A stretch of DNA of 32,000 nt from Promethearchaeota archaeon (GCA_016933055.1 JAFGBS010000028.1:210001-242000); one strand, 5' to 3'. Counted from the stretch's first letter, positions 5,185 to 24,079 are shown. Made by a program: numbers and translations. Notes: generated from the letters alone by a model not told the origin.

Positions 5185-5190
5185 CATAGA

Positions 5191-5213
5191 TTTTTTATTT
5201 TTCCTTTTTTTTT
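5191..5213 (+). terminator. Putative oligo-T archaeal terminator
   Basis: ttttttatttttccttttttttt directly after the stop of 3592..5184. Confidence 0.5.
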
Positions 5214-5370
5214 CTAAAGTTCGATTAGGATGTAACTGAGCTTTTAAAATAAATGACTCACTATGTTTGCAAAACAGCAAAATAAGTGAAATACCAATAT
5301 ATTTGAATTATAGATTTATTTCCATCAAATTATTTTATAAGGACATATTATCCAAAGTCAAGGTGCAAAA

Positions 5371-6369
5371 ATGGTATTAAAAGCTCCCAAGAAGATTAAA
5401 ATCGAGGATGAAGAAATTTCTCGAAAATATAAGATTATTGCTGAAAACTTACATAAAACCTATCTGTTAGGCAAAACTGCAGTTGCAGCTTTACGTGGTG
5501 TGGATGTGCAGATAAAAGAAGCTGAATTTATCGGACTCTACGGACCTTCTGGATCGGGAAAAACCACCCTTTTAAACTTAATAGGTGGTTTGGACTACCC
5601 TACGAGAGGAAAGATATTTCTTGATGGGATAAACATGGCAAAATTAGACGATAATGAGCTTGCTGACCTAAGAAGGGATCACATTGGCTATGTTTTTCAG
5701 TTCTATAATTTACTCCCACTGCTAACAGCTTTAGAAAATGTCATGATTCCTCTACATTTCCAAGCAAAATTAAGTAAAAGAGGGAAAGCACGAAAAGCAA
5801 TGGAACTTTTACGTCTTGTAAAACTTGATGAACGAGCAAATCACACTCCAAGTGAACTATCGGGAGGAGAACAACAGCGGGTGGCGATTGCACGCGCCTT
5901 TGCGAATGATCCCTCCATTGTCATTTTAGATGAACCGACAGGTGATTTAGATTCGAAAACTGGAATTGAAATACTTAATTTGCTACGTGATCTTAATCGA
6001 AAGGGAGCAACATTTGTTACAGCCACTCATGATGGGGCCGTCTCAGAATATTGTTCTCGTGTATTACACCTAATGGATGGCAAGATCGTAACGGGTTCAA
6101 AAGCAGAAGGATTGAAAGAAACTCCTCAACAAAGGAAAACCCGACTTGAACATCAGCAAACGAATCGACAATTAGTGGAAGAAAAGATATTAAAAACCAT
6201 TGAAGGAAAAGATCAAATCAGTATTGAACGATTACGTGCAGGGATTCCCTCTGAATTAATGGAACATCTCCCCATCCACTTTGATGACATTATTCAAGAA
6301 TTAATTGATAATGAAAAAATCAAGGGAGAACTCGATAAGGGTGTTCTTTTTATTCAAAAAGAAGGATAA
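5371..6369 (+). CDS. MacB/LolD-type (type VII) ABC ATPase with a C-terminal PCI-like winged-helix extension
   Basis: Walker A GPSGSGKT, Q-loop GYVFQFYNL, signature LSGGEQQRV, Walker B IVILDEPTG, H-loop ATHD; about 92 extra C-terminal residues. Confidence 0.93.
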   Translation: MVLKAPKKIKIEDEEISRKYKIIAENLHKTYLLGKTAVAALRGVDVQIKEAEFIGLYGPSGSGKTTLLNLIGGLDYPTRGKIFLDGINMAKLDDNELADLRRDHIGYVFQFYNLLPLLTALENVMIPLHFQAKLSKRGKARKAMELLRLVKLDERANHTPSELSGGEQQRVAIARAFANDPSIVILDEPTGDLDSKTGIEILNLLRDLNRKGATFVTATHDGAVSEYCSRVLHLMDGKIVTGSKAEGLKETPQQRKTRLEHQQTNRQLVEEKILKTIEGKDQISIERLRAGIPSELMEHLPIHFDDIIQELIDNEKIKGELDKGVLFIQKEG

Positions 6370-6399
6370 TACCAGATTATTGTAATTGGAAGCGTTCTC

Positions 6400-9237
6400 A
6401 TGAACATAATTGCCTATGCATTCAAAGATCTAAAAACTCAAAAATTTCGAGCAATATTAGGAGTAGTCGGAGTAGCGGTCAGCATTTTTCTTCTAACTTC
6501 AGTTTCCTTCTTGACTGATGCTGTTTCTTCTGCCTATGTGGATTATCTTGTCACAGATGCAGGGGGAATGGATGCCACTGTAAGTTATCGATGGCTTGAT
6601 GGATACACCGACAGCACCTTTGGTTCAGAGTACAATTTCAGTTATAATGAATTAATTGAAAAAATCGAGGTCGAAACCGATCAAATCGAGCATTATATTC
6701 CGAGATATCGGCAATGGCATTATTTTTATACTTCTAGATGGGGTTGGCGAGGCACAGAAATGGTGGGATTGAATATTTCGTATGAAGAAGAAATTGGATT
6801 TGGAAAATTCTTAAATACGGGATATGATTTCGTTACTCATGGTATTCCAGAGGGATATTGCGCCATATCATCCAAAATGGCCGAAGAATGGGAAATATTT
6901 GTTGGTGATTCATTCCGATTATATTGGTGGGAATGGGTTCCCGAGCAATACTGGCTCTCTCATTATTATGATTTAACTATCTTATCAGTTTTTGATCATC
7001 TATTGAAATTTCCCACTTGGATGGAGGAAATAGTGGTGGTTGATCTTTCAAGCATTCCCACTTACTTTAATAACAGTTATGGAGGGATGGAAGGTCGAGT
7101 TAATCATTTGCATATGACTTTTAAAAATTCCCAGAGCTTATATGATGTTCGAGATATCCAAGGATCGGAACGTGCTGTTGAGTCCATTGGTGCAAAAATT
7201 CAGACTGCTTTAGGGTATGGCTACTGGGTGGATTTACCAAAATTGACTAGTTTGGGTGACGCAGAATATCTGTCCATTGGGACTCGAATTATATTTATTT
7301 TTATAAGTCTTATCTCTATGTTAATTTCAGGAATTTTAATTAATGGGATCCTTTCAACTTCCGTTGAGGAAAAGATTCGAGAATTCGGCATATTCCGAAC
7401 ATTAGGTGCTCGGAAAAATTTCAATCTGAAATTAGTGATCGTTCAAGGTCTTCTAATTTGCGTTACAGGCACCACAATAGGGATTTTTTTATCTTGGTTA
7501 GGCGTATCACAAATTTTACTACCTCTATCTACGAGATGGATACCCTCTGAGATATTATCAAGTCCTATTCAATTCGTATTAAGACCAACAACATTGTTGA
7601 TTTCTTATGCGATAGGAATTGGAGTTTCTCTTGTGGTTTCTCTCTCACCAGCCATAAAAGTAATGCGATTGCAAATAGTAGAAGCAATTAATCCTTACAG
7701 ACATGAGGAATCCGTCTATAAATTAGTCAAAGAAGAGACTGTGAATGTAAGATTAATAATAATCGGATTGATTCTTGCCATAAATGGAGGATTAATCTTC
7801 TTCTTCCTACCACGTCTGATTGTGACATTGAATTTTTCTTTACTATCGACTATACTAATAATCGTACTCCTAGCTTTTCTTGTGGGGTTAACAATGGCGG
7901 GAATTGGTCTAATGCCCCTTCTTTTACGATTTTGGATAGCCATATTGAGACCTTTTGCACGGAAATTAATTGCGATAATAAGAGTAACAATTTTTCGTCA
8001 TGAAAGGCGAAATTCTTCTACAATTTTGATGTTTTGTTTATCGTTTTCCTTTGTATTATTTGCATCTAGTATGGTAGAAATTCAAAACGTTCAAGTAGGT
8101 GCTCTAATCCAGACTGAATTGGGGTCTCCATTAGTAATTCGTCGAGCAGGACATTCCCGTGCTATAACTACGGACTTCCAAGAGGAATTGATGCAGATTG
8201 AGGGCATAGAACGCAGTAGTGTTGTACTAGCTCATCCTGAATTACTTAAATCAATATATGCCTATGGAGAGGATGTTTATTATGATGCGGAAATTGGAGA
8301 TTACATAAACTTGAAATCAAGTGATATTCGATTATATGCTCTTGATAAATATTATGTAGACACAATTTACACTGAATATATTCAAATGTCTCGGGGGACA
8401 ATTAAAACAAGCTTTCCGGCCCTATTTAATGGAAATAACACATGCATTATTTCGACTGCTTTAAGCGAAGATTTATCTCTCAATTTGTATGATACTGTTC
8501 GATTGACCTTTATACGAGGCGATGAAACAACACAAGCTGAATTTGAAATTGTTGGTATAGCTAGTTTATTACCTGGCTTAGATCGATTCAAGGGTAGTTC
8601 TATTTTTGGAGGAGCTGATGGAGTTGCAATATCACATGAAAAATATCTTGAATATATGGAAATTCCAAAACCAGCATGGGCTTGGAGGATATTTGTCAGT
8701 GTTCGCGAAGATATGATTTCTCAAACACAAATGATTGAAGAAAAAATAGACGAGACTCTCTATGGAAAATGGACTTTTGGAACATATAATGTTCAAAATC
8801 TTGTACAGGAAGTGGAACGCGGTTTTCTTACAGTTCAAATTGTTCTTCAAATAATTTTATCCTTTACGATAGTGATTTGCATGTTTGGATTATTTGCAAG
8901 TTCTTATTCAAGTATTTTAGAGCGTAAACGTGAAATAGGAATTTTGCGTGCATTGGGTTTAAGAAGGGAAGGAGTTAGTAGATTATTCACTGTAGAATCC
9001 GTAGTTATATTACTAGCTAGTGGATCCACGGGAACAATAGTGGGATTTTCTACAGCAGCATTATTATCACAAAATTTGTCAATTTTCGCCCAATCACCAA
9101 GATTACTGAGTTTTCCTACTTTGACAACACTAATTTTATTTGCAGTTAGTTTGGTCGTCCTTTTGGTAGGAATGATGGCTATCCTTAGAAAAATTAAAAG
9201 AAAAAACTTGATGGAAATTTTTCGGGAGACACAATAA
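6400..9237 (+). CDS. FtsX/MacB-type ABC permease 1 (two fused permease modules)
   Basis: N-terminal TM followed by a large extracellular domain, repeated twice; motifs VEEKIREFGIFRTLGA and ILERKREIGILRALGL. Confidence 0.9.
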   Translation: MNIIAYAFKDLKTQKFRAILGVVGVAVSIFLLTSVSFLTDAVSSAYVDYLVTDAGGMDATVSYRWLDGYTDSTFGSEYNFSYNELIEKIEVETDQIEHYIPRYRQWHYFYTSRWGWRGTEMVGLNISYEEEIGFGKFLNTGYDFVTHGIPEGYCAISSKMAEEWEIFVGDSFRLYWWEWVPEQYWLSHYYDLTILSVFDHLLKFPTWMEEIVVVDLSSIPTYFNNSYGGMEGRVNHLHMTFKNSQSLYDVRDIQGSERAVESIGAKIQTALGYGYWVDLPKLTSLGDAEYLSIGTRIIFIFISLISMLISGILINGILSTSVEEKIREFGIFRTLGARKNFNLKLVIVQGLLICVTGTTIGIFLSWLGVSQILLPLSTRWIPSEILSSPIQFVLRPTTLLISYAIGIGVSLVVSLSPAIKVMRLQIVEAINPYRHEESVYKLVKEETVNVRLIIIGLILAINGGLIFFFLPRLIVTLNFSLLSTILIIVLLAFLVGLTMAGIGLMPLLLRFWIAILRPFARKLIAIIRVTIFRHERRNSSTILMFCLSFSFVLFASSMVEIQNVQVGALIQTELGSPLVIRRAGHSRAITTDFQEELMQIEGIERSSVVLAHPELLKSIYAYGEDVYYDAEIGDYINLKSSDIRLYALDKYYVDTIYTEYIQMSRGTIKTSFPALFNGNNTCIISTALSEDLSLNLYDTVRLTFIRGDETTQAEFEIVGIASLLPGLDRFKGSSIFGGADGVAISHEKYLEYMEIPKPAWAWRIFVSVREDMISQTQMIEEKIDETLYGKWTFGTYNVQNLVQEVERGFLTVQIVLQIILSFTIVICMFGLFASSYSSILERKREIGILRALGLRREGVSRLFTVESVVILLASGSTGTIVGFSTAALLSQNLSIFAQSPRLLSFPTLTTLILFAVSLVVLLVGMMAILRKIKRKNLMEIFRETQ

Positions 9238-12200
9238 TGATGAATATATATTCCCTAACAAAAAAAATTCGAAAATGCATTCAGCTAGTAATTGTATTCA
9301 GTTTTATTTCGTTAATTATGTTCTCTCCTGAGCTCCCTTTCATATCATTATCTGTAAATGATACACCTCAACTACAAAGTCCGTATAGTTCCGATGTGGC
9401 GGGTTCTGAAATGTATAGTGAACAATTATCTGCCTATATTGCCGGAAATGCGTCAATAATAAAACAAGGATATATTACGAACGATTCAAATATTTTGCGA
9501 GGATTTGATTATAGTGATCCAGCTTTTCATGAATGCTCGGTTTTAATCGCTTTATCAAATGGGATTACCCCCCAAATTTTCCCGAATCCGTTCAGTTCAA
9601 GTGCTTTCGGTTCGGAAAAATTCTTAACTTATGATTCTTTTTACGGTTTTCTATACTATGAATCTGCGACGGGTTCAGGAAAAGCAATAGCAGATCGCGC
9701 AAGTCGTGCTCTAAATATAATTGAAAACCTCTTTAATATCCAGCTTTTCATGCTTGATACCTTTAGTAAGAATCGATTTTATCCATTTTTTGGTTTTTAT
9801 CCAAATTGGGATGATTTATTTGAGTTAATCATAAATAATGCTCCACAAGATGGATATTGGGGTGCTATTGATTCCGCAAGATTATTGAGTAAAGAATATA
9901 TGACAAAAAGTCATCTCAGTTCGTATATTTTGATGTTAGATTCCGTGAACACCCTTTCATCTGGATTCGATTTCCCCGTTGAATTTGAAAAATTTGAAAT
10001 TGATCACATATCCACCTCCTTCGCTGATGTATCCGAAATCTCCAATATTTTCAGTAGTGTCTTTGATTTCTTGAACCTAACCAGTGGGGTGTTTTCTATG
10101 TTCGATACATCACAATTATTGAGGGGAGATTCTAAAATCATTACCACTATTTTACAATACGAGGGTTTAGAACAAGGAATACAACGCATTTCAGAAAATG
10201 AATATAATTTTGATCTACTGCGAGCACTAAATTATAATTCTTCAGAAAGGGGATCCCTTAGCCCTAGTAAAAAAATATACATTTCATTAGTAGGAGCTTT
10301 ATTATCGGAAATTGATATTTCTATCTATTCCTCAGATATTTTAGGATTTACTCCTCTTTATCATAACTTTTCCAGTTACATATTGGATTCCATTGAAGAA
10401 GCTGCATTTCTACTCGGTCAGAATATCGATATTTCCATAATTTCTGATTATTCTCTAAGAACATTTTGGCATACAGATGATGACGTCAATCGCATCGTTA
10501 CAAATTTATATGATCATGCGACTATAGAAAATCCGTTGAATTTAATAACGACCTTAAGCTTAACAGGTTTGCCCGTTATACCAACGGGTATTTTAGAACC
10601 CTTAAAAGAATTCATAATTCGATACGCAATTAATTCGACCGAGCCAATATTACGGATAGAAAAGGATTATCGGTTTATTTCTTATGAGACCGGTGAATAT
10701 GAAATAGATATAAAAGTAACGAACGAAGGGGATATCCCCGCATGGGGGCGTAAAATCGAATTACCGATTTTAAATCAAACCTTTTTGCCAATCCCTACTG
10801 TTATCACAGATTTTATCGAATTGCAATATGGAATGACAGCAGAAGAATTTCTTATACCAGAAGAACCACCCAGATTCATTTTCATAGATTCTTTAGGATC
10901 AGGTGTATTCGATTATCTTTATCCATCAATAACTAATTTTTCGCAACTCACCTTTTATAATCCTCAATTAGCTGAAGACATTTTAGCTCCGAGTAATGAT
11001 GATTATTTTAATTCTTCGGGAGTATCACAAGAAGAACGGCAACTATTAGCAGAATTGTTCAATCAATCATCCAGCATATTTAATCAGGACAATTGGAAAT
11101 TAAATCCAGGGGAATCTATTACTTACACACTTAGCGGCTTATCCAATGAAGCTTTCTTCGATTATTCCAGTTTTTATGATTTGAATTTCACCATAACGGG
11201 GGATAATTTAGAACCATATCTTTCTTATGGTCAATCAATCCTCCCTAGCGAACCATCCTATGCTAGAATAGAAGATGGACTTACTTGGGATATCCTTTCT
11301 GAACAAATTGGTCAAGATAACCTCATTCAAATATTTTTTTCATTTGAGAATACTACACTCATTGATTTCTACAATTTTTCTTTGGACCAAATAGGCTTGA
11401 ATTTCGAATTTACCTCTAATTTAGAACTTTCTATGGACACTCAGTTTACCTTAGAATTCTTTAATACTACGGATATGACGTTCCAATTAATACAAAATTC
11501 TCTTTATAGTGCAACAAACACGAGTGTCGAATTTAACACACCATCTAATCTGCTAGATTATATAGATCCCGCGAATAATTATCAAAGTATCTTTAAATTG
11601 ACGTTCAAAACAGAACTCCCACAAATTTTGTCGATTGATAGCCTAATCGTTCAATTTATTGATAGAGATTTGGATATTATCATGCAATCTCCCGCAAGAG
11701 TAGCGTATACGACTTATACAGGACATAATACATATTTTATTGATTCCAATCCCATTACGGCTGTTACAGATCCAGCACCCATATTGATTGCTACTTCAAC
11801 TTTAGATCATTATAGTTCTGCTCCGGGAATATTAAATACCTATAATTTAACAATCGAGAATGTGGGAGGTCTACAAGCGAATCAGGTAAATGTTACTCTA
11901 AAAGCACCTGGCATAATAGCAGATTCAGGTAATTTTACTCTTGAGAATGGATACCTCTTGTACGAATATCCCAATATTAGTGTTGGGAATTCAATTCAAA
12001 ATCTTAGCTTCAGTTTTTATACTCCTAATAGTTATAATCTCCCCCTTGCTGAAGTTGAGTACAATCATCCCATCACATTATTGAACCTAACTGATTCAGA
12101 TTTCACCACCTATACCAACGATCTGTTCATTTCCGCTCCTATTGATTATTTAACTCGGTACCCCTTTTTGTATGTATTGAAACTTTACTATAAAAGTAAT

Positions 12201-13091
12201 TATACAAATGCAGATACTGCATTTGGACTAGCACCTCAAGTAGGGGATATAATCCGGTTAGATATGGTAATTGAAAATACCGGTCCAATTACTCTTTCAG
12301 ATTTTAATTGCTCGATTCCAAATAATGTGATTGGATTTAAAAGAATGGATAATACTACAGTTCAATTTGCAAACATACAAAAAACAATCAACCAGACATT
12401 TTCTACAGAATTAAAAAAAACATACTGGGATTCTATTTTATTTCCTAATATAGATAGCTTCAATTCAAGTCAGAAATTCTCTATTCAGTTTGCACAAAAA
12501 TTTCCAATTGTATTGGGCTTTAAGAATTTTGAAATACAAAAAACATTCTCAGATTATGATGGAGTACAAAATTCCATTGTAACTGTGCAAATAAATGTCA
12601 CAAATACCGGAAATTTAAAAGTATACGATATGACCGTGATTGATTTTGCGGGATATCCAAAAGAAGGCTTTTCACTTGTAAACGGTACCCCTGATAAACT
12701 CATATCCTCACTTACTCCTGGTGAGTCTTTCATTTACACATATTCATTAAAACTCAATAAACAAGGCATCTATGAAATTAATCCCGCATCTCTCTCTTAT
12801 CGCTATATTACCACTCAAACTGCTTACAGCAGTGTTTTTCAGGTTAAGGTTCGCAATGTTTGGGTTGTAAATGCGCTTTATGTGATACTGCCAAGTTTAA
12901 TAGGAGGAATGACAGTTGGCTTGATTTATTGGTCTAAAAAAAGGTATGATTTAGAAGCAGCTGAATTTTCCCGAAGAGAGGAATTGATGTTTGGTCAAAA
13001 TCTCCGCTCAGTAGCTTGGAATAAAAGAACTCTTCAAGAAGATCTCCTAGATACTGAAGATTTAAAAACAAAGGGGGAGGATACTTTTTGA
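9237..13091 (+). CDS. Large membrane-anchored surface protein (1284 aa) with several DUF11/CARDB-like Ig domains and a TRAP-beta-like C-terminal domain
   Basis: N-terminal hydrophobic segment; recurring I.V.N.G Ig-like strands (IKVTNEG, LTIENVG, MVIENTG, INVTNTG); many N-x-S/T sequons; C-terminal TM plus a roughly 50-aa cytosolic tail. The ATG overlaps the previous stop (TAATG). Confidence 0.8.
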   Translation: MMNIYSLTKKIRKCIQLVIVFSFISLIMFSPELPFISLSVNDTPQLQSPYSSDVAGSEMYSEQLSAYIAGNASIIKQGYITNDSNILRGFDYSDPAFHECSVLIALSNGITPQIFPNPFSSSAFGSEKFLTYDSFYGFLYYESATGSGKAIADRASRALNIIENLFNIQLFMLDTFSKNRFYPFFGFYPNWDDLFELIINNAPQDGYWGAIDSARLLSKEYMTKSHLSSYILMLDSVNTLSSGFDFPVEFEKFEIDHISTSFADVSEISNIFSSVFDFLNLTSGVFSMFDTSQLLRGDSKIITTILQYEGLEQGIQRISENEYNFDLLRALNYNSSERGSLSPSKKIYISLVGALLSEIDISIYSSDILGFTPLYHNFSSYILDSIEEAAFLLGQNIDISIISDYSLRTFWHTDDDVNRIVTNLYDHATIENPLNLITTLSLTGLPVIPTGILEPLKEFIIRYAINSTEPILRIEKDYRFISYETGEYEIDIKVTNEGDIPAWGRKIELPILNQTFLPIPTVITDFIELQYGMTAEEFLIPEEPPRFIFIDSLGSGVFDYLYPSITNFSQLTFYNPQLAEDILAPSNDDYFNSSGVSQEERQLLAELFNQSSSIFNQDNWKLNPGESITYTLSGLSNEAFFDYSSFYDLNFTITGDNLEPYLSYGQSILPSEPSYARIEDGLTWDILSEQIGQDNLIQIFFSFENTTLIDFYNFSLDQIGLNFEFTSNLELSMDTQFTLEFFNTTDMTFQLIQNSLYSATNTSVEFNTPSNLLDYIDPANNYQSIFKLTFKTELPQILSIDSLIVQFIDRDLDIIMQSPARVAYTTYTGHNTYFIDSNPITAVTDPAPILIATSTLDHYSSAPGILNTYNLTIENVGGLQANQVNVTLKAPGIIADSGNFTLENGYLLYEYPNISVGNSIQNLSFSFYTPNSYNLPLAEVEYNHPITLLNLTDSDFTTYTNDLFISAPIDYLTRYPFLYVLKLYYKSNYTNADTAFGLAPQVGDIIRLDMVIENTGPITLSDFNCSIPNNVIGFKRMDNTTVQFANIQKTINQTFSTELKKTYWDSILFPNIDSFNSSQKFSIQFAQKFPIVLGFKNFEIQKTFSDYDGVQNSIVTVQINVTNTGNLKVYDMTVIDFAGYPKEGFSLVNGTPDKLISSLTPGESFIYTYSLKLNKQGIYEINPASLSYRYITTQTAYSSVFQVKVRNVWVVNALYVILPSLIGGMTVGLIYWSKKRYDLEAAEFSRREELMFGQNLRSVAWNKRTLQEDLLDTEDLKTKGEDTF

Positions 13092-16000
13092 AAAGCATTA
13101 AAAGATCTCACCAATTCGTTCTTGGATTAAGTTTCACAATATTAATGATTACGGCCATTGCGAATACTCAATTATATGAAAATACGATTTACATAGGAAA
13201 TGAATTTCGAGATCCTCCTTCCTCCCAGATGAATTATATAAAAGACCAATTACATCTCGATCCTTATATTTGGAATACCCTTGGATTTTCAGGAGATCCC
13301 AATGCATCCATCGTAATAATTGGTTCTGGTATTGATTTTAGGCACCCGAAATTTGGCTACGATTCATTCGGAGATAAGGATTTCAACAAAAAAATCATAG
13401 GGTGGAAAGATTATGTGAACATTTCCAATTTGGAACCTGTCGATCCTCATGGATTGAGTACCTTTACAGCAATATCGGCATTTGGAAATAATGATTCCAA
13501 TTCAAAAATTTACTTAGATAGTGAAAACCGAACTTCTATTACTTTGGGCAGTAAATATGAGCAACAAAATCTATTTCCCACAGATCCTGGACCTGGGTGG
13601 TTTAATATAAAATTAGGATCATTGTGTATAGACCAAATAAATGCCAACATCACTCTGAACGCCACATATTCAGAATATAGCACAAATTTCATCCAAAATG
13701 CCAGTTTTCAAATAAAATCAGGAAATACCGTGCTAAATCAGACTATTGAAGATCTACATGGGATTTATAGAAACCTTAGTTATACCACGGAAATTCAACC
13801 CGCAATTTATGACTTTTACTTTCGATATTACTTGAAATTTTCAAGCCCCGCAAATTTTTCTGTGAATGCAATTATAAAAGCACCCTTAGAAAATGGAACA
13901 GATTACTCGGGAATTGCACCTCAAACAAAAATTATTGGATTACGTATATTGAATGAAAAATTAGAGGGAAACGTATCATCTTTAGTTTCCGCCTTAAATT
14001 GGGCAAAAATTAATCGTGATGATTATCATATTATTGGAATTCAAGTTGATTTGGGTGATTATGAATGGGATGTTTCTGCAACTATCCTCTCAGACGTTAT
14101 TGAGAGCGTAATAGAAAGTGGAATCATGTTATTCCTACCAGCGGGAGACAGTGGTGTAAAAACAAATGCTCTTAATCCTCTGGTCGTAAGTGAATACCCT
14201 ATTGTTGTAGGTTCTGTCAGCGATATTGGAAAACTGACATTTTATACATCACTTGGGCAAGAAATTTCTACTAACCATAAAAAAATCGACATTCTTGCGC
14301 CAGGTGGTAGTTATCTTGCTGGACATCGAACAATTATTTCAGCTGATACAAACGCAAATGATGCCTTAGGATATTTACAGGATCAAAGTATCAATGATTC
14401 TACATCCATAATTAGTACTTCTATCAGTACAGGATTTGTTACTGCGGCATATAGCTTATTAGTCGAAGCCTTGGGAGGTTATATGGTCTGGGAAAGCCTG
14501 CGAACCATAAATACAACATTAGCATTAAAATCTCGTTTATTAATGACAGCGACAGAATTGAATCAAGCAAGAGAAGACAATCCCTACACAACTGCAGTTG
14601 ATGAGAGCTCGACTATTTTTTCACCAAATATAGATCGGGGATTAAAGGATACTATAGAAGGATTTGGATTACTCAATATTCCTGCAGCTCTTGAAAGTAT
14701 CTTATTTGAAATTATGATGGATAGTCAAGTTACGGATCACCTTGTTTCTGCCCCAATTAATATTACAGGCTTGCATAGTTTTGCCCGGAGAATACAATTA
14801 AACCAAAATGAATACTATAATTTTACTCTCAATTTCTCGAATTCTTCCGATCTTGATCTATATATATATCAAAATCGTTCCGATTTGTTCGGAGACCCGA
14901 TTTTAATACAAAAATCCACTTCAAGTGGGAATATTAACGAATCTATTGTTTTCGGATTAGAACAAGATTCTGGAGAATATATTTTAGTAATTAAGTCAAT
15001 TGATGGAAATTTAACGAAATTCGAATTAAACGTGACTAATTTACCAAACCTAAATGCACCAACTCTTACAGATCATTCAGTGGCTGGGATTCAAGGATAC
15101 AACGACACTTTGGATACCTTTGAATTCATGATTAACTATACTGATTTAGATAATCTACCACCAATAACGATAGATCTCAATATTACGGGTGTTTTTGAAT
15201 TGATTCCATTTATAAAAGTTTCAATGGATATGAATTACACTGATGGCTGCTTATATTCAGCAAGATTTCATTTCTACGAGACGGGAACATACCATTATCA
15301 CATAATTGCTTGGGATGGAATAAACTTAGTTAGAACTCCTGAACTAGTAGAATACAATTTAACAGTAGTTCCAATAAAAAATGCTGTATACAACAATTAT
15401 AGCTGGTTCTTTTCCTCGATGGGTGATTGGGAGAAAGAGGGTTATTGGAACAACATCTCTCAATCCAATGAAATCGATCCCCGAGGAATAATGGGACAAA
15501 ATTGGAACGCATTATACTTTGGGGATACGGATTCCGCTTATTTGGGAAAATATTCTTACGAAAGTGTGCCAGAATTGAGTGTATCAAGAGCCTATTCCCC
15601 ACAATTTTGGTTAAATGCAAGTTCCAATCCAATTCTTCGACTAGGAACGCGAATTAGTATAAATCAAGGCGATTTCTTTATCTTAAACATCCGCTTAAAT
15701 AGAACGGGTTCGTGGACCACAATTGATTCATTCAGTAACTCTGAAACTGAATGGAGATTGTTAAAATATGATTTATCAGCATATGTTTCATCATATGTTC
15801 AATTTCAACTGGTAGTAGAATTAGATTTATTAGATGATATTGAGTACAATAAGGGTATTTTACTTAGTGAATTCACTCTATTACAACAACATCCTGTTAA
15901 CATCAATCCAACTTTGATTTTTAATGCCACTGTAACCCCAGATGAAGGTCCTATATATCAAAATTATCGTTTTTCTGTTATTGTCGGAGATAAAGACGGA

Positions 16001-17494
16001 GAAACTCCGGATATGGTGTATTTAGAGATAGATCAAATCAATTATACGATGTTTAATATATATGGTGATTTTGATAGTACATATGAGTTGGATAATGGAA
16101 CCTTAGAATCAGGAGGAATCATATATGCGTATGACATATTTCTCGCTGCTGTTCGCAATTCCACTTTCCGCATCCATGTAGTAGCCAATAGTTACAGTAT
16201 GACAACGGAATTTTTCGCCGGACCACAATTAAGCATACATACCACTTCCTCTTTTCCTTATTATGGAATTCCGTCCAATATGAGCGTATATGGTAATCCT
16301 CAACCTCATCCTCAAACAATATGGGTAAGTTCTAGTAATTCCCTCCACTATATTGCTCGAGATGAGGTTTGGTATTTTGGTGAAAAATACTACTTTGGAT
16401 ATGGAGAGAACTGGAATGTATATATGGTAACATCCCTAATTCGTATTCCGCGTTCTACTGAAGAAACCGATCGAGTTTACTTATGGTTTGAACATCAATT
16501 AAGGTTTGATACACTTTTTCCCCAATTATTTGGGGATGATTATGCACAAATAATGATTTCCCCGGATTTCGGATCTCATTGGTATGAACTCATAACATAT
16601 GATGAAAATGTGAATCAATATCAAAGTCAAAAAATTGATTTGTGGAATTATAGAGGAATGGATGTGCTCATTCGTTTTAACTTTCATTCCGATGATACTA
16701 GTTTTCTACCAACGTTCCAGACGGGATGGTATGTACGAAATATTATGGTAAATGTGGATCTATCTTTAGATAAAGAACCCCCTACCGTAATTTTCACCAA
16801 TATTATACCGAATATGGAAGTTAATGAAACATTTACTATTGAAATATATATTACGGATCCCTCAGGAGTGGATGATAGTTTAGTTACACTTTTCATTAAT
16901 ACAATTATTATAGACGATGCAGTTTCTGAAGATGGAGTAATCCTGTATGATTTAGATACAACTAAATTTCGAAATGGAAATACCACAATTTCAGTTTTAG
17001 CGTATGATGAGGTGGGGAACAAGATCATTGAAACCACTTATATTATTATAAAAAATGAAGGCTCTCCAATGGTGTGGATTTATATAATAATAGGGGTCAC
17101 AATTGCTCTAATTGCAGGAATTTTATATTTCTATTTTCAAGTATTCGTACCCTCTCAAAGGAAGAAAGAACTACGTCAAGAGATGTTATCGGAAGAACAA
17201 CAAAGAAGATTGATGGAAGAACTGAGAGAGCGTCAAGTGACAGAAATGAGAATTCGAGAAGAAACAGAACTAGCTACTCCAGAATCTGAGGCGTTGAAAT
17301 CTTTTACATATGAATGCAGAAGATGCAGGAAACAATTTCAAAATCAAGACTATATTTGGTCAATGATTTGTCCCGATTGTAAAACGGATACCTTAAATTT
17401 GGTATACCAGTGTAAATTATGCGGAAAAATCTATTATGAAGATATGCCGGGAGAATATTTCTGTAAAGATTGTAATATCAAATTATTAAAATAA
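13088..17494 (+). CDS. Single-pass membrane protein: degenerate S8 subtilase domain, PPC-like, MAM/cleaved-adhesin-like and Ig-like domains, TM helix, coiled coil and double zinc ribbon
   Basis: Subtilase scaffold motifs IIGSGIDFRHP, YSGIAP.TKII.LRIL, AGDSG, IVVGSV, DILAPGG, STSIS, LLMTA, GFGLLNI; TM at about 17069-17149; C-terminal CRRC, CPDC, CKLC, CKDC. TTG start overlaps the previous stop, with a GGAGG RBS. Confidence 0.85.
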   Translation: MKSIKRSHQFVLGLSFTILMITAIANTQLYENTIYIGNEFRDPPSSQMNYIKDQLHLDPYIWNTLGFSGDPNASIVIIGSGIDFRHPKFGYDSFGDKDFNKKIIGWKDYVNISNLEPVDPHGLSTFTAISAFGNNDSNSKIYLDSENRTSITLGSKYEQQNLFPTDPGPGWFNIKLGSLCIDQINANITLNATYSEYSTNFIQNASFQIKSGNTVLNQTIEDLHGIYRNLSYTTEIQPAIYDFYFRYYLKFSSPANFSVNAIIKAPLENGTDYSGIAPQTKIIGLRILNEKLEGNVSSLVSALNWAKINRDDYHIIGIQVDLGDYEWDVSATILSDVIESVIESGIMLFLPAGDSGVKTNALNPLVVSEYPIVVGSVSDIGKLTFYTSLGQEISTNHKKIDILAPGGSYLAGHRTIISADTNANDALGYLQDQSINDSTSIISTSISTGFVTAAYSLLVEALGGYMVWESLRTINTTLALKSRLLMTATELNQAREDNPYTTAVDESSTIFSPNIDRGLKDTIEGFGLLNIPAALESILFEIMMDSQVTDHLVSAPINITGLHSFARRIQLNQNEYYNFTLNFSNSSDLDLYIYQNRSDLFGDPILIQKSTSSGNINESIVFGLEQDSGEYILVIKSIDGNLTKFELNVTNLPNLNAPTLTDHSVAGIQGYNDTLDTFEFMINYTDLDNLPPITIDLNITGVFELIPFIKVSMDMNYTDGCLYSARFHFYETGTYHYHIIAWDGINLVRTPELVEYNLTVVPIKNAVYNNYSWFFSSMGDWEKEGYWNNISQSNEIDPRGIMGQNWNALYFGDTDSAYLGKYSYESVPELSVSRAYSPQFWLNASSNPILRLGTRISINQGDFFILNIRLNRTGSWTTIDSFSNSETEWRLLKYDLSAYVSSYVQFQLVVELDLLDDIEYNKGILLSEFTLLQQHPVNINPTLIFNATVTPDEGPIYQNYRFSVIVGDKDGETPDMVYLEIDQINYTMFNIYGDFDSTYELDNGTLESGGIIYAYDIFLAAVRNSTFRIHVVANSYSMTTEFFAGPQLSIHTTSSFPYYGIPSNMSVYGNPQPHPQTIWVSSSNSLHYIARDEVWYFGEKYYFGYGENWNVYMVTSLIRIPRSTEETDRVYLWFEHQLRFDTLFPQLFGDDYAQIMISPDFGSHWYELITYDENVNQYQSQKIDLWNYRGMDVLIRFNFHSDDTSFLPTFQTGWYVRNIMVNVDLSLDKEPPTVIFTNIIPNMEVNETFTIEIYITDPSGVDDSLVTLFINTIIIDDAVSEDGVILYDLDTTKFRNGNTTISVLAYDEVGNKIIETTYIIIKNEGSPMVWIYIIIGVTIALIAGILYFYFQVFVPSQRKKELRQEMLSEEQQRRLMEELRERQVTEMRIREETELATPESEALKSFTYECRRCRKQFQNQDYIWSMICPDCKTDTLNLVYQCKLCGKIYYEDMPGEYFCKDCNIKLLK

Positions 17495-17509
17495 TGAAGG
17501 AGAAAAATA

Positions 17510-20422
17510 ATGAACACATTTCAATTTGCATGGAGAGATTTTAAAAAGCAGAAATTGAAGAGCATTTTCGCAATCTTAGGGGTAATGATAGCAATTTTTC
17601 TGCTCACAGCAATTGGAATGTTAATCGATTCTCTAAGTTATAGTTTTTTGGATGTAGCTACGGCTCAATCTGGGAGTTCCGATCTTATAATTACGAAATC
17701 AATATCTCCAGATTTAACTTTTAATCCTTATATGAATCACAGCTATATTGAATCTACTGCTGATATTGAGGAAATTGATAATTACTATCCTCGAATTTTA
17801 AATTTCATTGATATGGAAACCAAACAAACGATAGATGATCCTACAAGAGTAATGTTTTACGCCATAAATAGCACACTTGAACAAGAATCTGGAAAAATGG
17901 GAGATCTAATTTTATGCGATCCCATCACATTAGAAGAGACCGGGGAGATTTATGATAATCCTATACCTGAAGGTCGTGTGATAATTTTGAAGAATACTGC
18001 AAAAATATACTCTCTCTCTGTAGGGGATTGGATGATTCTCACTTACACCCGATACAGCATAAATGTCACAGTAGATGCAGTATGTGTTCAGAAACTCAAA
18101 TTCAGTGCCGTGGAATCCAACTTAGTTATTATGGAACTGGAACAAGCTCAATCGTTCTTAGATAAACCTAACGAAGCAAATTACATAATGGCTACATTCA
18201 AAAATCCCGGAAGAATTTATGATACTCGGAACATCGAAGCAACTACAACAAGAATCCGTGATATCGGAGAAAAAATCCAACGGGTAATCGGATTTGAATA
18301 TATAATTTCTGCTCCAAAATTATCAGAAGTCGAAAATTCCGAGTTCATGACAACACTCATGAATACCATGATGATTTTTGTTTCCATAGTTGCAATGTTA
18401 ATCAGTGGAATACTAATAAATTCAATTCTAACTACATCAATAGAAGAAAGAATTAGAGAATTTGGAATAATGCGTGTGGTTGGGAGTAAAAAACGTGAAA
18501 ACATGCAGATCGTGCTTTATCAAGGAATATTAATAGCAATCTTTGGAACTACTGCGGGAGTGGCTATTGGAATCGCTTCCGTACCCTTCTGGTTATGGTT
18601 GATCTCCTCCCTTTCGGTGATATGGTCCAAAGGAATTCCGATGATATGGAATTTCCAAACCATCATACAAAGTATAGTTGTTGGGATAGTCGTAACTGTA
18701 GCAATATCATTACTCCCGGCATTGAAAGCGGGAAAAATCGAAATTTCTAGTGCTGTCGATCCATACAGAAGAGATCAACACCAGAAATATAAACTCAAGA
18801 AAGAAGGATCGTCCAATTTCCGTATTATGTTAATTGGTATAGCTGTGAGTACTGCAGGATTGCTTGTTTTCATTTTTCTACCTCGACTATTGCTTGCAGA
18901 AGATCTTATTCTCGTTTTATCTCTTTTTATTACGTTACTCTTGGCAATTTTGATTGGTTTAGTTTTTGCGTTGGTTGGGATAGTTCCAGCAATCGAATGG
19001 GTAATTGTACATATTTTTAAACCCTTTATTAGTAAAATATTCCCAATTGTGCAATTGGGTTTAAAACGAAATCGAAGACGTAATCAAGGAAATATTTTAC
19101 TATTTTCCTTAAGTTTCTCTTTTATTTTCTTTTTCAGTACATTCATCGTTATGCGAGCACAAATTACTACGAATAGTCTCGAAAATACTTATGGTTCAGA
19201 TCTGGTTCTTATCAATCAAGGTTCGGAAGCGACAAGAGATAATGTAGATTTTAATTTATATGATCAAGTTTCACAGACTATCGGAATAAAAAGTACTGCA
19301 CCTTTAATGTACAATACCATTGATTTGACGGAGATAATATCTGTACTTGTTACTGCGTTGGAACAAGGTGTAGATCCCGAATCTATTGCGGAGTCATTCC
19401 GGAGGATTTTTAGTATTAATAAAATAGAGACTTATATTGGCTCAATCACATTTAATAAATATGTGGAATGTGGGTTATTTGGAGTAAATCAAGAGTACGT
19501 AGATATTTCTAATAATGATTTCTTCATTTGGGATAAATCCTCTGGTTCAAACGACAATAGCTTTAAACAAATATTCGATACATCACGCAATGATACAATT
19601 ATTATTTCAAAAAATATAGCGGAATACATTGGAGTGACTGAGATTGGAGATCAAGTCAGAATGGTGTTTGCAGAACCTGGAAAAGAGAATCAAAATACTG
19701 GGAAAGCAATCACATTCACAGTTGCCGGAATATCAGCAGGGATGCCGGGAATTTGGAATTTTGGAAGTTCTCAAGCGAGTATATGGGGGGCGGGAGTAAT
19801 GATGTCGATAGAAAATTACGTAAAATACATATATCCTAATGAACCTTTAACTCAAGCAACTCCGATTGATAAAATTCTGATCAACTTAGAGGACACTTCT
19901 ACTGAAAGTATTAATGATGCGAAAACTTTGATAACGGATCTTTATGGAACAAATTATCGAATTTTAGTCGATGATAATGTGTCTAAAATTAAATTATTCA
20001 CTCAAAATGACCAAGTTATCGACATTATTATGCAAGTACTATTGATTTTAACCATTATTATTGCTTTATTTGGATTGATATCAACAATGTATTCTTCATT
20101 ATTAGAGAGAATGTTTGAAGTTGGATTATTGCGTGCAATGGGATTACAAAAAAATGATGTACGAAAAATTTTCATATTTGAAAGCTTATCAATGATGTTA
20201 TCTTCTGGGACAATGGGCACAATAGTTGGTACATTTATTGCTTATCAAATGATTGCCAATGTAGCGATATTATTAGAGACACCGGTAGTATTTGTGTTTT
20301 CAACTGCTGCCTTTCTGCGAACTTACCTCCTTTCCATAAGTATCTGTATAGTGGGAGTACTTTTTATTACTCGAAGAGTATCTCAATGGAGTATTATGGA
20401 AATATTTCGAAAGACGTTCTAA
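17510..20422 (+). CDS. FtsX/MacB-type ABC permease 2 (two fused modules; paralog of 6400..9237)
   Basis: Same layout and motifs as permease 1: IEERIREFGIMRVVGS, LLERMFEVGLLRAMGL, C-terminal MEIFR; RBS GAAGGAG. Confidence 0.9.
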   Translation: MNTFQFAWRDFKKQKLKSIFAILGVMIAIFLLTAIGMLIDSLSYSFLDVATAQSGSSDLIITKSISPDLTFNPYMNHSYIESTADIEEIDNYYPRILNFIDMETKQTIDDPTRVMFYAINSTLEQESGKMGDLILCDPITLEETGEIYDNPIPEGRVIILKNTAKIYSLSVGDWMILTYTRYSINVTVDAVCVQKLKFSAVESNLVIMELEQAQSFLDKPNEANYIMATFKNPGRIYDTRNIEATTTRIRDIGEKIQRVIGFEYIISAPKLSEVENSEFMTTLMNTMMIFVSIVAMLISGILINSILTTSIEERIREFGIMRVVGSKKRENMQIVLYQGILIAIFGTTAGVAIGIASVPFWLWLISSLSVIWSKGIPMIWNFQTIIQSIVVGIVVTVAISLLPALKAGKIEISSAVDPYRRDQHQKYKLKKEGSSNFRIMLIGIAVSTAGLLVFIFLPRLLLAEDLILVLSLFITLLLAILIGLVFALVGIVPAIEWVIVHIFKPFISKIFPIVQLGLKRNRRRNQGNILLFSLSFSFIFFFSTFIVMRAQITTNSLENTYGSDLVLINQGSEATRDNVDFNLYDQVSQTIGIKSTAPLMYNTIDLTEIISVLVTALEQGVDPESIAESFRRIFSINKIETYIGSITFNKYVECGLFGVNQEYVDISNNDFFIWDKSSGSNDNSFKQIFDTSRNDTIIISKNIAEYIGVTEIGDQVRMVFAEPGKENQNTGKAITFTVAGISAGMPGIWNFGSSQASIWGAGVMMSIENYVKYIYPNEPLTQATPIDKILINLEDTSTESINDAKTLITDLYGTNYRILVDDNVSKIKLFTQNDQVIDIIMQVLLILTIIIALFGLISTMYSSLLERMFEVGLLRAMGLQKNDVRKIFIFESLSMMLSSGTMGTIVGTFIAYQMIANVAILLETPVVFVFSTAAFLRTYLLSISICIVGVLFITRRVSQWSIMEIFRKTF

Positions 20423-22023
20423 TTTGTTTTTCGCCCTTTTATCTTATTTTTATAGATAATGAATAATGCCAAACTTGGTATTATTATGATTAAAAATATG
20501 TTATATCCAGGGACTTTATTATCAGGAGGATCTGGTAAATCAACTAATACAACTCGAGGATTTGAAATTTCCGATTCAATACCTTTCACTATGCATGTAA
20601 CTACATAGAAATAAGTCCCCTCCTCCATACCAGTTTCGATTAAGCTATTACTGGTTAAAATTTTATAAGGTATTCTACCAGAAATATCAAGGATGGGATG
20701 AATATCCCGATATAAATGATATCCTTCACTTTCAGGAAAATATTGCCAGTTGAGATAATATGTCCCGTTTAAACTTGGATTGGGTTCTATTGGAGTAAAA
20801 TAAGGCGCTGGTGGTGTGCTATAAGAATAAAATTTAAGCAAATATAGGTCGTAATCACCTGAAATCTCTGCACTTCCATTATACCCCCCGCATACATATA
20901 AATAATTATTATAAGCAAATATTGATTTAGGAATATAATGATAATCATCATTCCATTTGGGATAACTTGTTTCTACTAAAATTCCATTATAACTATATTT
21001 AGCTAGCACAACTTTTTCATATTCAGCCTCCCTACCCAACGTTGTACCACAAACAAAGACATAAAACTCATTAGCCCAAATAGAATATGCCTTATCCTCT
21101 TCTGGTAAGCTCCAAATTTGATACCATAATTCATTTCCATCAGAATCCCACTTCATTATAAGCATATCGGTAGTCAAATCTGTCTCATTCCAAATATTAC
21201 CGCAAAAATACAAACTTGTATCAAATCCAAACATTGATGTGTAATACTCTTCATAAGGTGTACCCCACGAGCGATTCCACAATTGGTTTCCATCAGAATC
21301 CCATTTTACTATCAAGGTATCATTTAGTCCCGAACCATAACTAGACGTACTTCCGCAGGTATATATTTCATTATTTATACCCCAAACATCAATTCCTTCT
21401 TCCCAATTTCCACCACCCCAAGTTCGGTTCCATATTTGGGAACCATAATCATCCCATTTGATTAATAGGAGATCATGTGAATATACACCGCTAAGATAAA
21501 TTTCATTTTCAATACCCCAAACTGAATGGGCAACCCCATAATTCCCTCCCAAATACCAAGTTGTATTCCAAATTTGATTACCCTCGGAATCCCATTTTAT
21601 CAAAACCAAGTTATCACTGGAAGTTCCTGCAGTATATATAAAATAACTATTGCTCCATACGGCATTTCCATAAACACCCATACCAATAGTCCATGTCACA
21701 TTCCAATCTTGATATCCTCCACCCCATTCACTATATCTAGCTAAAATTAACTTGGGATTCGTTGTATCTGCATCCAAGGTTCCGCAAACATATATATAAT
21801 ATTGATCTGCCCATACATCTTGCGCGAAATCTAAATTGGACCCCCCCCAAGAGGTTTCCCATAAAAGATAGGTGGGGTCTGCCAAGGGAAGATTTATAGA
21901 GCTTATATCAGGTGAAACAGATGGTAACAGAAGTGTTTCATCCATCGGACTTGTTAAGGCTATGATAAAAATCATCAATGAAATTAAACTGAAAAAAAAG
22001 TATAAGCGATTCTTCCGATTCAT
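20419..22023 (-). CDS. Surface beta-propeller repeat protein with an FN3-like domain and a Loki-CTERM-type anchor
   Basis: N-terminal signal/TM; 5-6 repeats of L.KWD.DGNQ.WN.TWG; FN3-like segment LNW....GY.LYR..GTYFYVVT; ends VPGYN followed by a TM helix and a basic tail. Confidence 0.85.
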   Translation of the reverse strand: MNRKNRLYFFFSLISLMIFIIALTSPMDETLLLPSVSPDISSINLPLADPTYLLWETSWGGSNLDFAQDVWADQYYIYVCGTLDADTTNPKLILARYSEWGGGYQDWNVTWTIGMGVYGNAVWSNSYFIYTAGTSSDNLVLIKWDSEGNQIWNTTWYLGGNYGVAHSVWGIENEIYLSGVYSHDLLLIKWDDYGSQIWNRTWGGGNWEEGIDVWGINNEIYTCGSTSSYGSGLNDTLIVKWDSDGNQLWNRSWGTPYEEYYTSMFGFDTSLYFCGNIWNETDLTTDMLIMKWDSDGNELWYQIWSLPEEDKAYSIWANEFYVFVCGTTLGREAEYEKVVLAKYSYNGILVETSYPKWNDDYHYIPKSIFAYNNYLYVCGGYNGSAEISGDYDLYLLKFYSYSTPPAPYFTPIEPNPSLNGTYYLNWQYFPESEGYHLYRDIHPILDISGRIPYKILTSNSLIETGMEEGTYFYVVTCIVKGIESEISNPRVVLVDLPDPPDNKVPGYNIFLIIIIPSLALFIIYKNKIKGRKTN

Positions 22024-22243: not shown

Positions 22244-23179
22244 ATGTATGATACAAACACAGATAAATACTCAAGATTTCTGATTGTCAGTGATGTACAT
22301 GGTTTAGTCAAGGAATTCACTCAATTCCTCGCTCTAATGCAAAAAAAATACAATGACACTATACGATATTGCGTACAATTAGGGGACTTCTTTAAAGGCA
22401 GGAATGTGATTCGCAATAAAAAAACTTATTCATTTTGGAAGGATACATCAATTTTCAAGGAATTTCCATTTCCAATTTTTAGCGTGAAAGGAAATGAGGA
22501 TATTAATATCCCTGAATCATGGTGGAGTGGGGGTATGCTGAGTCTACTTCCAAATTTAACTGAATTCCAGTTGGATAGATTTAATTCCATCCCATTGCAT
22601 TATTTTGAAGAAGATGGAGAGAAAATCCGTGAATTGGGAGTGGGAAAATTGATTCGTCTAAATATGCCACGAAAGAGACATAAAGATGAATATTATCCCA
22701 TGTTTAATTGTACGTACGAAAAGAACTCACCTATAGCTCCTATTTTAGAATCAGATAGACCCGTTGATTTCATGTTATCCCATGTTCCACCATATGGCTT
22801 ATTAGATAGAACGAGAGACGCAATAACACATAAACACATTCGCAATACAGGGAGTAAATTACTTCGTCTTATCATCGATAAAAGACACCCTCAAGTTATT
22901 TTTTTTGGTCACAACCATTATTGTAATTACAAATTCTTTGGTGAGATGTTAGTAATTTCTGTCGATAAATTCTGTAGAAAAATGCCTTACGAATTCTCTT
23001 CAACTAATGAATACTCTACAATTACAAAAAAAGTTGATTCAGAAGAAGAGGTCAATGGATTTAGTTATTGTGTTGTTACCGAAAAAGAAGAATCTTATCT
23101 AATTGAAATATATCGTAGAAATCAATTAGTCTTTCAGTATGATATGTTACAACAAAATATCTTATACTCAGCGTTCTGA
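22244..23179 (+). CDS. Calcineurin-like metallophosphoesterase
   Basis: Motifs SDVHG, LGDFF, KGNED, LSHVPP, FGHNH. Confidence 0.88.
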   Translation: MYDTNTDKYSRFLIVSDVHGLVKEFTQFLALMQKKYNDTIRYCVQLGDFFKGRNVIRNKKTYSFWKDTSIFKEFPFPIFSVKGNEDINIPESWWSGGMLSLLPNLTEFQLDRFNSIPLHYFEEDGEKIRELGVGKLIRLNMPRKRHKDEYYPMFNCTYEKNSPIAPILESDRPVDFMLSHVPPYGLLDRTRDAITHKHIRNTGSKLLRLIIDKRHPQVIFFGHNHYCNYKFFGEMLVISVDKFCRKMPYEFSSTNEYSTITKKVDSEEEVNGFSYCVVTEKEESYLIEIYRRNQLVFQYDMLQQNILYSAF

Positions 23180-23998: not shown

Positions 23999-24079
23999 CT
24001 AAATATCATCATAATATGAACTTGTTGAAGTTATTTCTATTATCATAATCTTCATTAGTGGTAACTTCTTTTTTTTCAT

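Follow-up and report, generated by a model that had tools for sequence, protein, structure and literature searches.

A five-gene cassette at 5371-20422 of the window, a stretch of 32,000 nucleotides (nt) from a Promethearchaeota archaeon (GCA_016933055.1, JAFGBS010000028.1:210001-242000), encodes, in this order, an ATP-binding cassette (ABC) ATPase of the LolD/MacB type, permease A, a surface protein of 1284 amino acids (aa), here called P3, a 1468-aa homolog of the S8 subtilases, P4, and the paralogous permease B. Comparison of the loci in related genomes argues strongly that the five genes form a conserved functional unit. Judged by gene content, the constant set comprises the ATPase, both permeases, and a member of the P3 family, with the subtilase as an addition in families f1-f3. 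By analogy with known systems, we see an even chance that the products make up a mechanotransducing envelope complex of Lokiarchaeia-type Asgard archaea, similar to YbbAP-TesA and FtsEX, with permeases that would act on a resident P3 scaffold with or without the subtilase.

The order ATPase-permease A-P3-P4-permease B, with all genes co-oriented, was found in all 20 loci fetched from three families, and homologs of P3 and P4 lie side by side among 40 screened relatives from the same order. A pattern scan with one genome per species yielded 65 loci, 50 of them with enough flanking sequence. Of these 50, 48 keep the arrangement (45 in full order and three more with one gene split), and a P4 ortholog occupies the fourth position in 48 of the 50 complete loci. 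One of the other two, in Candidatus Sigynarchaeum springense, has no subtilase; in the second, L111 (CP070831.1 bin108, 9001-11649), the cassette stops inside gene 3 and is followed by 9 kb of unrelated sequence, which may reflect a rearrangement or a misassembly. The 15 loci cut by contig ends are consistent as far as they go. Some loci carry the titles Hermod-, Thor-, or Odinarchaeota, and the genome collection assigns them to the order of the window. The cassette is present in Promethearchaeum syntrophicum MK-D1 (NZ_CP042905.2, ~1,265,500-1,283,500), Candidatus Lokiarchaeum ossiferum B35 (CP104013.1, ~4,852,800-4,871,000), and Candidatus Harpocratesius repetitus. An initial annotation, made from the window sequence, had asked for a check of synteny across Asgard genomes and had named a lack of conservation of the two inner genes with the ABC genes as one outcome speaking against its proposal; linkage is what both sets of loci display. 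Its neighbors change from family to family: f3 loci have RNase III and Ham1 next to the cassette, and f1 loci a roadblock-like gene and Metallophos. It is thus the block itself that is kept as a unit.

In a sample of 301 genomes from the phylum, full-length P3 is confined to a single order and there to families f1 and f3, in 62 of 75 genomes; elsewhere the immunoglobulin (Ig)-like domain alone is matched. Five relatives without P3, 92-100% complete, also have no permease A ortholog (the best matches are partial, at 24-26% identity), and the only S8 gene of four of them is a shorter stand-alone paralog, away from any ABC gene. A profile search of 1.84 billion representatives returned 179 proteins below 1e-30, comprising about 30 full-length clusters, fragments, a distant group that shares the first ~620 residues, and giant repeat proteins that match in the Ig-type stalk only. 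Both members of the distant group that were examined adjoin double-FtsX permeases, as does every P3-family member with examined surroundings, including the subtilase-free variants and distant paralogs. No description of the cassette was found in the literature on Asgard FtsX/subtilase or archaeal PIGT, and the main text of the MK-D1 glycoproteomics paper does not mention its proteins.

Variants of the cassette were found in two settings. Family f4, to which Sigynarchaeum belongs, contributes three subtilase-free loci with the order ATPase-permease-P3-like-permease or a contig-cut remainder of it; in a fourth (G022), a single permease is accompanied by a short P3-like gene only. L. ossiferum carries a second cassette, L070 (CP104013.1, ~2,016,000-2,036,000; 5415-15291), arranged as permease-ATPase-P3-like-permease, again with no subtilase, and its 1059-aa P3-like protein has no cytosolic tail. 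Since such four-gene variants exist, P3 appears to be the constant partner of the permeases and the subtilase dispensable for the core. The proposal of the initial annotation that both giant proteins serve as partners has to be narrowed for the subtilase, which is missing from f4 and from L070, P3 being the constant one.

The window is AT-rich (~33% GC), and, as is typical of Asgard archaea, small GTPases of the Ras- and Rag-like kinds and a RING-finger protein are encoded near the cassette. The cassette consists of five open reading frames (ORFs) on the + strand; their coordinates and junctions agree with the earlier description of five co-oriented genes with gaps of 30, -1, -4, and 15 nt, the overlaps of -1 and -4 nt providing translational coupling. 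The upstream intergenic region contains an oligo-T run after the preceding gene, an AT-rich stretch, and a TTTATAA-like box ~35 nt before the ATG, and AAGGTG sits 8 nt upstream of this first ATG of the cassette. Because the oligo-T run, the TATA-like box, and AAGGTG flank the start of the block, the cassette looks like one transcription unit. The P3 and P4 genes are single-copy in the window genome. Each giant protein has one N-terminal and one C-terminal hydrophobic segment by hydropathy, and contains 2.3-2.6 N-X-S/T sequons per 100 aa vs 0.3-0.7 in the ABC parts, a density that fits glycosylation.

By sequence, the ABC parts are of the type VII (MacB/FtsX) kind, with a nucleotide-binding domain (NBD) of the LolD/MacB/FtsE/YbbA type and double-FtsX permeases, in agreement with the initial annotation. 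The Walker A, signature, Walker B, and H-loop motifs of the ATPase are all intact in the translation. Its best NCBIfam matches are LolD (7e-70), FtsE (6.6e-60), YbbA (5e-57), and MacB, all under the equivalog cut-offs, and bacteriocin-export and DevA-type ATPases are also among its closest sequence families. The orthologs, 58-86% identical, head the cassette in all loci. Concerning the C-terminal extension of the ATPase, earlier described as PCI-like, the conserved tail itself was recovered, and the PCI match is faint (E 0.15, 12.7 bits, below the cut-off of 22). Co-occurrence of this tail with the subtilase was considered and rejected, as the tail is also found in subtilase-free variants; an ESM Atlas feature search with the tail gave nothing usable. 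The ATPases of family f3 (L042, L044-L046, L050-L054, L056, L057) have a conserved charged N-terminal extension of ~70 residues, and none is seen in f1 or in the window.

The two permeases score 96 and 99.5 bits with PF02687 (cut-off 25.5). They were earlier called paralogous, which is borne out by ~30% identity and a shared double-FtsX topology. Hydropathy gives 10-11 above-threshold peaks per permease, with loops of 250-290 residues after transmembrane helices (TM) 1 and 7, a pattern that fits helices arranged as 1+3, 2, 1+3 with a TM5-TM6 hairpin, TM9 of permease A being under the threshold. The extracytoplasmic domains of permease A, at residues ~38-296 and 560-813, give it a YbbP-like topology by hydropathy, and its sequence matches in PDB are MacB, LolF, and YtrF; LolC/E models are also among the best NCBIfam matches. 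Orthologs of permease A, 38-80% identical, are always second in the cassette, and those of permease B always last. In Escherichia coli YbbP, TM1-2 and TM7-8 of the 10 TM helices each enclose a periplasmic domain and TM5-6 form a linker; YbbP assembles with its ATPase, YbbA, and with TesA, a hydrolase bound on the periplasmic side, in a 2:1:1 complex (PMC12646458). If the cassette follows this precedent, either permease would on its own make a full transporter together with two copies of the single ATPase.

The head of P3 is predicted from models to fold like PIG-T and was not part of the earlier reading. The P3 ectodomain (residues 40-1205) was modeled by AlphaFold2 (AF2) from 23 homologs, with a predicted local distance difference test score (pLDDT) of 81.6 and a predicted template modeling score (pTM) of 0.75, and the first 775 residues were modeled from a 50-sequence alignment (pLDDT 81.8). 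The best VIA-align matches of the long model are PIG-T, chain T of the human GPI transamidase, in 7w72_T (Z 16.6) and 7wld_T (Z 16.1), and its fungal counterpart 9ub7_E (Z 12.5), followed by single Ig domains at Z <=11.3. The short model matches 7w72_T with Z 16.5 and a root-mean-square deviation of 3.9 Å over 270 residues (model 17-429 vs PIG-T 26-344), then 7wld_T (Z 15.9) and 9ub7_E (Z 13.3), the next unrelated match being at Z 10.4. Three PIG-T chains rank top in Foldseek with the short model (E 1e-8), and the first ESM Atlas match of the head is a eukaryotic PIG-T cluster. The match covers the LbT1 'half-rib-cage' lobe of PIG-T, the platform on which the protease PIGK is held over the membrane (PMC9098846). 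In the long model the alignment reaches PIG-T residue 516 via the CARDB-like domain, and the C-terminal TM is present, with several extra domains between. An intermolecular disulfide like that of PIG-T Cys182 and PIGK Cys92 was considered as well and is unsupported, no ectodomain cysteine being conserved family-wide in P3 or P4.

The PF04113 (Gpi16) profile finds no match in P3 (E<=0.1), in the whole genome (E<=10), or in 50 family members (E<=10). As sequence support is missing, we make no Gpi16 family assignment for P3 and describe it only as PIG-T-like in fold. The PF01650, PF06728, and PF04114 profiles (PIGK, PIG-U, and GPAA1) have no match in the 91%-complete genome, with controls that were uninformative for two of the three. 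As a separate observation, the third and fourth ESM Atlas matches of the P3 head are two Nitrososphaerota clusters (805 and 60 members) of hypothetical proteins of ~380 aa, which span the whole PIG-T-like head with TM scores of 0.53-0.55 by the shorter protein. The models suggest that these proteins are a stand-alone archaeal family with a PIG-T-like fold.

Downstream of the head, P3 has a helical/beta region without a structural match, followed by a jelly roll that the model makes CBM32-like in fold only. The Ig-like stalk matches 9ifr_A (Z 11.3, model 806-929) and 3idu_A (CARDB, Z 10.3). The membrane-proximal domain is the only region of P3 seen by sequence methods: residues 1101-1198 match PF05753 (TRAP_beta) with E 1.8e-15 and 57.3 bits (cut-off 22.4), and TRAP-beta chains of mammals are matched by the P3 family profile (8b6l_F, E 3e-4). 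CARDB, DUF11, and BatD score on this domain too. The motif of the cytosolic tail is kept in families f1-f4 and is absent from the second L. ossiferum paralog. Searches with the whole 1166-residue model gave only generic multi-Ig matches with low TM scores (Foldseek) and only generic clusters of the DUF11/CARDB/BatD type (ESM Atlas), and an ESM Atlas feature search with the ectodomain returned nothing usable.

P4 matches the Peptidase_S8 profile (PF00082) at residues 265-500 with 43.1 bits (cut-off 21.8), and its best sequence match among solved structures is Tk-SP (E 6e-17). In the window protein, Gly79 stands for the catalytic Asp, Leu123 for the His, and Asp354 for the oxyanion Asn, with Ser445 retained, and by these residues P4 is catalytically dead here. 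The motifs LDTG, GHGT, AAGN, and GTSI are intact in 18 of 21 aligned orthologs, and they are lost only in the window, its congener (metagenome-assembled genome AMARA_1), and one neighboring genus. In a motif check of 53 further loci, D, H, N, and S were all retained in 52, AMARA_1 again being the sole exception; the profile scores are 87-125 bits in orthologs with an intact triad vs 43 in the window. Across the family, then, the protease of the system is predicted to be active, and judged from the orthologs its inactivation came later, in two genera. The dead copies have kept their full length, and P4 here, with Asp, His, and the oxyanion Asn lost, would therefore be only a binding or structural subunit. 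The pseudoprotease of the initial annotation is accordingly a correct description for the window genus and one neighbor and an incorrect one for the family.

The best conserved stretch of P4 is the cytosolic zinc ribbon, also recognized earlier: four CxxC pairs follow the TM, all eight cysteines are invariant in 21 of 21 orthologs, and the tail has weak Zn_ribbon_6, DZR, and HypA matches. Between the S8 domain and the TM lie ~770 further extracellular residues. A PDB sequence search with residues 560-1330 gave no match, and an ESM Atlas feature search with the C-terminal ectodomain gave only a chance-level match (0.79).

Taking these observations together, we propose that the single LolD/YbbA-type ATPase powers two paralogous permeases of the YbbP/BceB type, each pseudo-dimeric with two extracytoplasmic domains. 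ATP binding and hydrolysis would move the four permease ectodomains by mechanotransmission and so act on resident partners, with no solute pumping. The motion might switch the subtilase or set its place on the PIG-T-like scaffold, or it might raise substrates embedded in the membrane to the protease; the P3 tail, the zinc ribbon, and the winged-helix-like domain of the ATPase could connect the partners with the ATPase side. The link from the cytosolic modules to intracellular signaling or protein turnover that the initial annotation suggested is conjectural. The invariant zinc ribbon and the conserved P3 tail point to resident membrane partners with cytosolic contacts rather than exported cargo, and by analogy the cassette proteins plausibly form a physical complex. 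A complex prediction for the P3 head (50-479) and the S8 domain (40-560) with alignments scored 0.00, which counts neither for nor against binding.

Several points weigh against this proposal. The core exists without the protease in some lineages and with a dead one in the window genome, so protease control cannot be the core function. The MacB_PCD profile reaches 25.4 bits in permease B (just short of the cut-off of 27) and is undetected in permease A, so a Porter/Sabre fold of the ectodomains is tentative. The likeness to PIG-T comes from predicted models, at ~9-10% identity and with no sequence signal, and no further GPI (glycosylphosphatidylinositol)-transamidase subunit family was found in the window genome. 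Conserved operons can also encode proteins of the same pathway that never touch, and we infer binding, mechanotransmission, and substrate by analogy. A bolder version of the proposal takes P3 as a true, very divergent PIG-T homolog, whose scaffold would hold the protease at a set height while the permeases lift C-terminal anchors or lipids, making it an archaeal counterpart or source of the GPI-transamidase scaffold logic, joined to a TRAP-beta-like module; we regard this version as improbable.

Instead of being partners, the giant proteins could be clients, with the permeases dedicated to their handling by LolCDE-like extraction, help with insertion, quality control, or shedding. Membrane-anchored proteins are indeed handled by type VII systems of the LolCDE type, the best NCBIfam matches include LolC/E and LolD, and P3 is strictly co-inherited with the permeases; a client role would also explain why L070 has a P3 paralog of its own. 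Nevertheless, the conserved cytosolic modules of both giants fit permanent residents better than extracted proteins, and no LolA-like release partner is encoded in the cassette, and we consider a client role rather unlikely. Less likely again is an ordinary efflux or detoxification transporter of the MacB/BceAB type, for antimicrobial peptides or lipids, whose operon simply happens to include surface proteins. Every lineage keeps two permease paralogs on either side of the giant genes, with stops and starts that overlap; the genes are lost jointly; and no P3-family gene occurs away from double-FtsX permeases in the loci examined. The window also encodes no membrane fusion protein (MFP) or other adaptor and no BceRS-type two-component system. 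In favor of such a transporter are the nearest sequence families (MacB, LolD, bacteriocin-export, and DevA-type ATPases) and the wide occurrence of duplicated ADOP/YbbP-type permeases, most of them uncharacterized. Finally, a BceAB-like trans-membrane sensor is improbable. In such a sensor, a ligand such as a glycan would bind P3 at its CBM32-like domain or P4 in the pocket of the dead protease, and the ABC cycle would relay the binding to the zinc ribbon and ATPase tail. The cassette encodes no kinase, response regulator, or DNA-binding output and the protease looks active in most lineages, which suits catalysis rather than sensing, although the BceB-like 10-TM topology, the CBM32-like fold of P3, the cytosolic modules, conserved in three proteins of the five, and the dead protease retained in the window genus would agree with it, as would the roadblock/winged-helix-turn-helix gene just upstream in f1, fused in the window to a Rag-like GTPase domain and not conserved outside f1.

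Table 1. Features of the cassette and its upstream region (window coordinates; residue numbers refer to the encoded protein)
Feature	Coordinates	Strand	Evidence
Upstream intergenic region, putative terminator and promoter/ribosome-binding site of the cassette	5190..5370	+	Read from sequence
ABC ATPase, 332 aa, NBD at residues ~25-240	5371..6369	+	PF00005, E 6e-36
ATPase C-terminal extension, ~90 aa, putatively winged-helix-like	6103..6366	+	Kept in all cassette variants
Permease A, 945 aa, fused double-FtsX	6400..9237	+	PF02687, two stretches, E 2e-27
P3, single-pass surface protein, signal/anchor 18-36, TM 1213-1231, cytosolic tail	9237..13091	+	Hydropathy and AF2
P3, predicted PIG-T/Gpi16 LbT1-like 'half-rib-cage' head, residues ~56-468	9402..10640	+	VIA-align, Foldseek, and ESM Atlas on AF2 models
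P3, predicted CBM32/F5-8 type C-like jelly roll, residues ~642-811	11160..11669	+	CBM32/discoidin-type matches, Z 7-10, model 603-772
P3, predicted Ig-like stalk, CLIPPER/pilin-type (~843-970) and CARDB-type (~995-1093)	11763..12515	+	VIA-align
P3, membrane-proximal TRAP-beta/CARDB-like Ig domain, residues ~1095-1205	12519..12851	+	PF05753
P3, TM helix and cytosolic tail with E-F-x-R-R-E-x-L-x-F-type motif	12873..13088	+	23-homolog alignment
P4, single-pass S8 subtilase homolog, TTG start, signal 11-29, TM 1328-1346, cytosolic tail	13088..17494	+	Profile and hydropathy
P4, subtilase domain, residues ~45-560	13220..14767	+	Alignment to Tk-SP (3afg/9ues) and orthologs
P4, cytosolic double zinc ribbon, four CxxC pairs after TM	17300..17491	+	Ortholog alignment
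Permease B, 970 aa, double-FtsX	17510..20422	+	PF02687, two stretches, E 1.7e-28

Other genes of the window show varying degrees of linkage to the cassette. In the 530-aa product of the gene at 3592-5184 (+), a Rag/Gtr1-like GTPase domain at the N terminus is followed by ~300 C-terminal residues without a Pfam match. The C-terminal part is a separate co-oriented gene of 308-423 aa directly upstream of the cassette in the f1 loci checked, for instance in L. ossiferum and P. syntrophicum, and was not seen in family f3; this gene may be a lineage-specific sixth gene or a regulator. A calcineurin-like metallophosphoesterase is encoded at 22244-23179 (+), and its homologs lie just downstream of the cassette, on either strand, in six f1 loci, its place being occupied by Ham1 in f3. 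A 534-aa ORF without a Pfam match (20419-22023, - strand) is convergent with permease B, overlaps its end by 4 nt, and is kept only in the congener (38% identity, C-terminal half). An alpha/beta-hydrolase (S33/S9-like, - strand) and a rhomboid intramembrane protease (+ strand) are encoded at 23168-24748, 3-4 kb downstream of the cassette, with no conserved linkage to it among the other loci. An open frame of >1853 codons without a Pfam match runs off the window (26440-32000, + strand).

Lokiarchaeia have no ordered S-layer, and cryo-tomograms show 'complex surface proteins' on their cells (PMC9834061). The cassette is a candidate envelope machine, conserved and single-copy (two copies in L. 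ossiferum), and it is directly testable because it is present in both cultured species checked (P. syntrophicum MK-D1 and L. ossiferum). If our proposal is correct, it would extend type VII ABC mechanotransmission, after FtsEX, LolCDE, MacAB, and YbbAP-TesA (2025), to archaea and to giant single-pass partners. Predicted PIG-T-like and TRAP-beta-like folds, otherwise tied to the lumen of the eukaryotic endoplasmic reticulum (ER), meet in one Asgard surface protein encoded beside a protease, and this pairing bears on the origin of ER-lumenal machinery. The series of cassettes with a predicted active protease, a dead one, or none is a natural comparative experiment.

Among known systems, YbbAP-TesA of E. 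coli (PDB 9GE6-9GE8; PMC12646458) is similar in having a YbbA-like ATPase, a fused 10-TM permease with two extracytoplasmic domains, and a co-located hydrolase gene. The cassette differs from it by its two paralogous permeases and by partners that are giant single-pass proteins and not a small soluble SGNH esterase. Its hydrolase is an S8 protease that is optional and, by its residues, dead in the window genus, and its ATPase has an extra winged-helix-like tail; moreover, the cassette is archaeal. FtsEX is a type VII ABC system that performs mechanotransmission to extracytoplasmic partners (EnvC, PcsB, CwlO, and RipC), of which EnvC is a catalytically dead enzyme homolog. It shares with the cassette the type VII ABC parts and, by our proposal, an extracytoplasmic partner, and FtsE is among the best NCBIfam matches noted above. 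In contrast, FtsX is a 4-TM monomer that dimerizes, the partners of FtsEX are soluble coiled-coil proteins acting on peptidoglycan, and the sequence similarity is limited to generic FtsX and NBD domains; we know of no peptidoglycan synthesis in these archaea.

Three further likenesses concern the giant proteins. PIG-T/Gpi16 (7W72, 7WLD, and 9UB7) has, like P3, a signal peptide, a half-rib-cage lobe (predicted in P3), and one C-terminal TM, its beta-sandwich near the membrane may have a counterpart in P3, and P3 is encoded beside a membrane-anchored protease, as PIG-T holds PIGK. However, P3 is ~700 residues longer, with CBM32-like and Ig domains between the head and the membrane, and the neighboring protease is a subtilase rather than a C13 cysteine protease. 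TRAP-beta (SSR2, PF05753) resembles the membrane-proximal Ig domain of P3 and the TM that follows it, with a match at the sequence level, whereas TRAP-beta itself, ~180 aa long, stands alone as a subunit of a complex associated with Sec61, and the P3 domain is the last module of a stalk. Archaeal membrane-anchored subtilases, such as Tk-SP of Thermococcus kodakarensis (3AFG/9UES) and those of the pyrolysin type, are likewise large multi-domain extracellular S8 proteins; the window P4 differs from them in being without the catalytic Asp, His, and oxyanion Asn and in having a C-terminal TM, a double zinc ribbon, and a fixed position in an ABC cassette. Thus a type VII ABC system with an extracytoplasmic partner is known, and the novelty lies in its occurrence in archaea, in permeases that are paired and of the 10-TM type, in single-pass partners of giant size, and in the predicted PIG-T-like/TRAP-beta-like scaffold.

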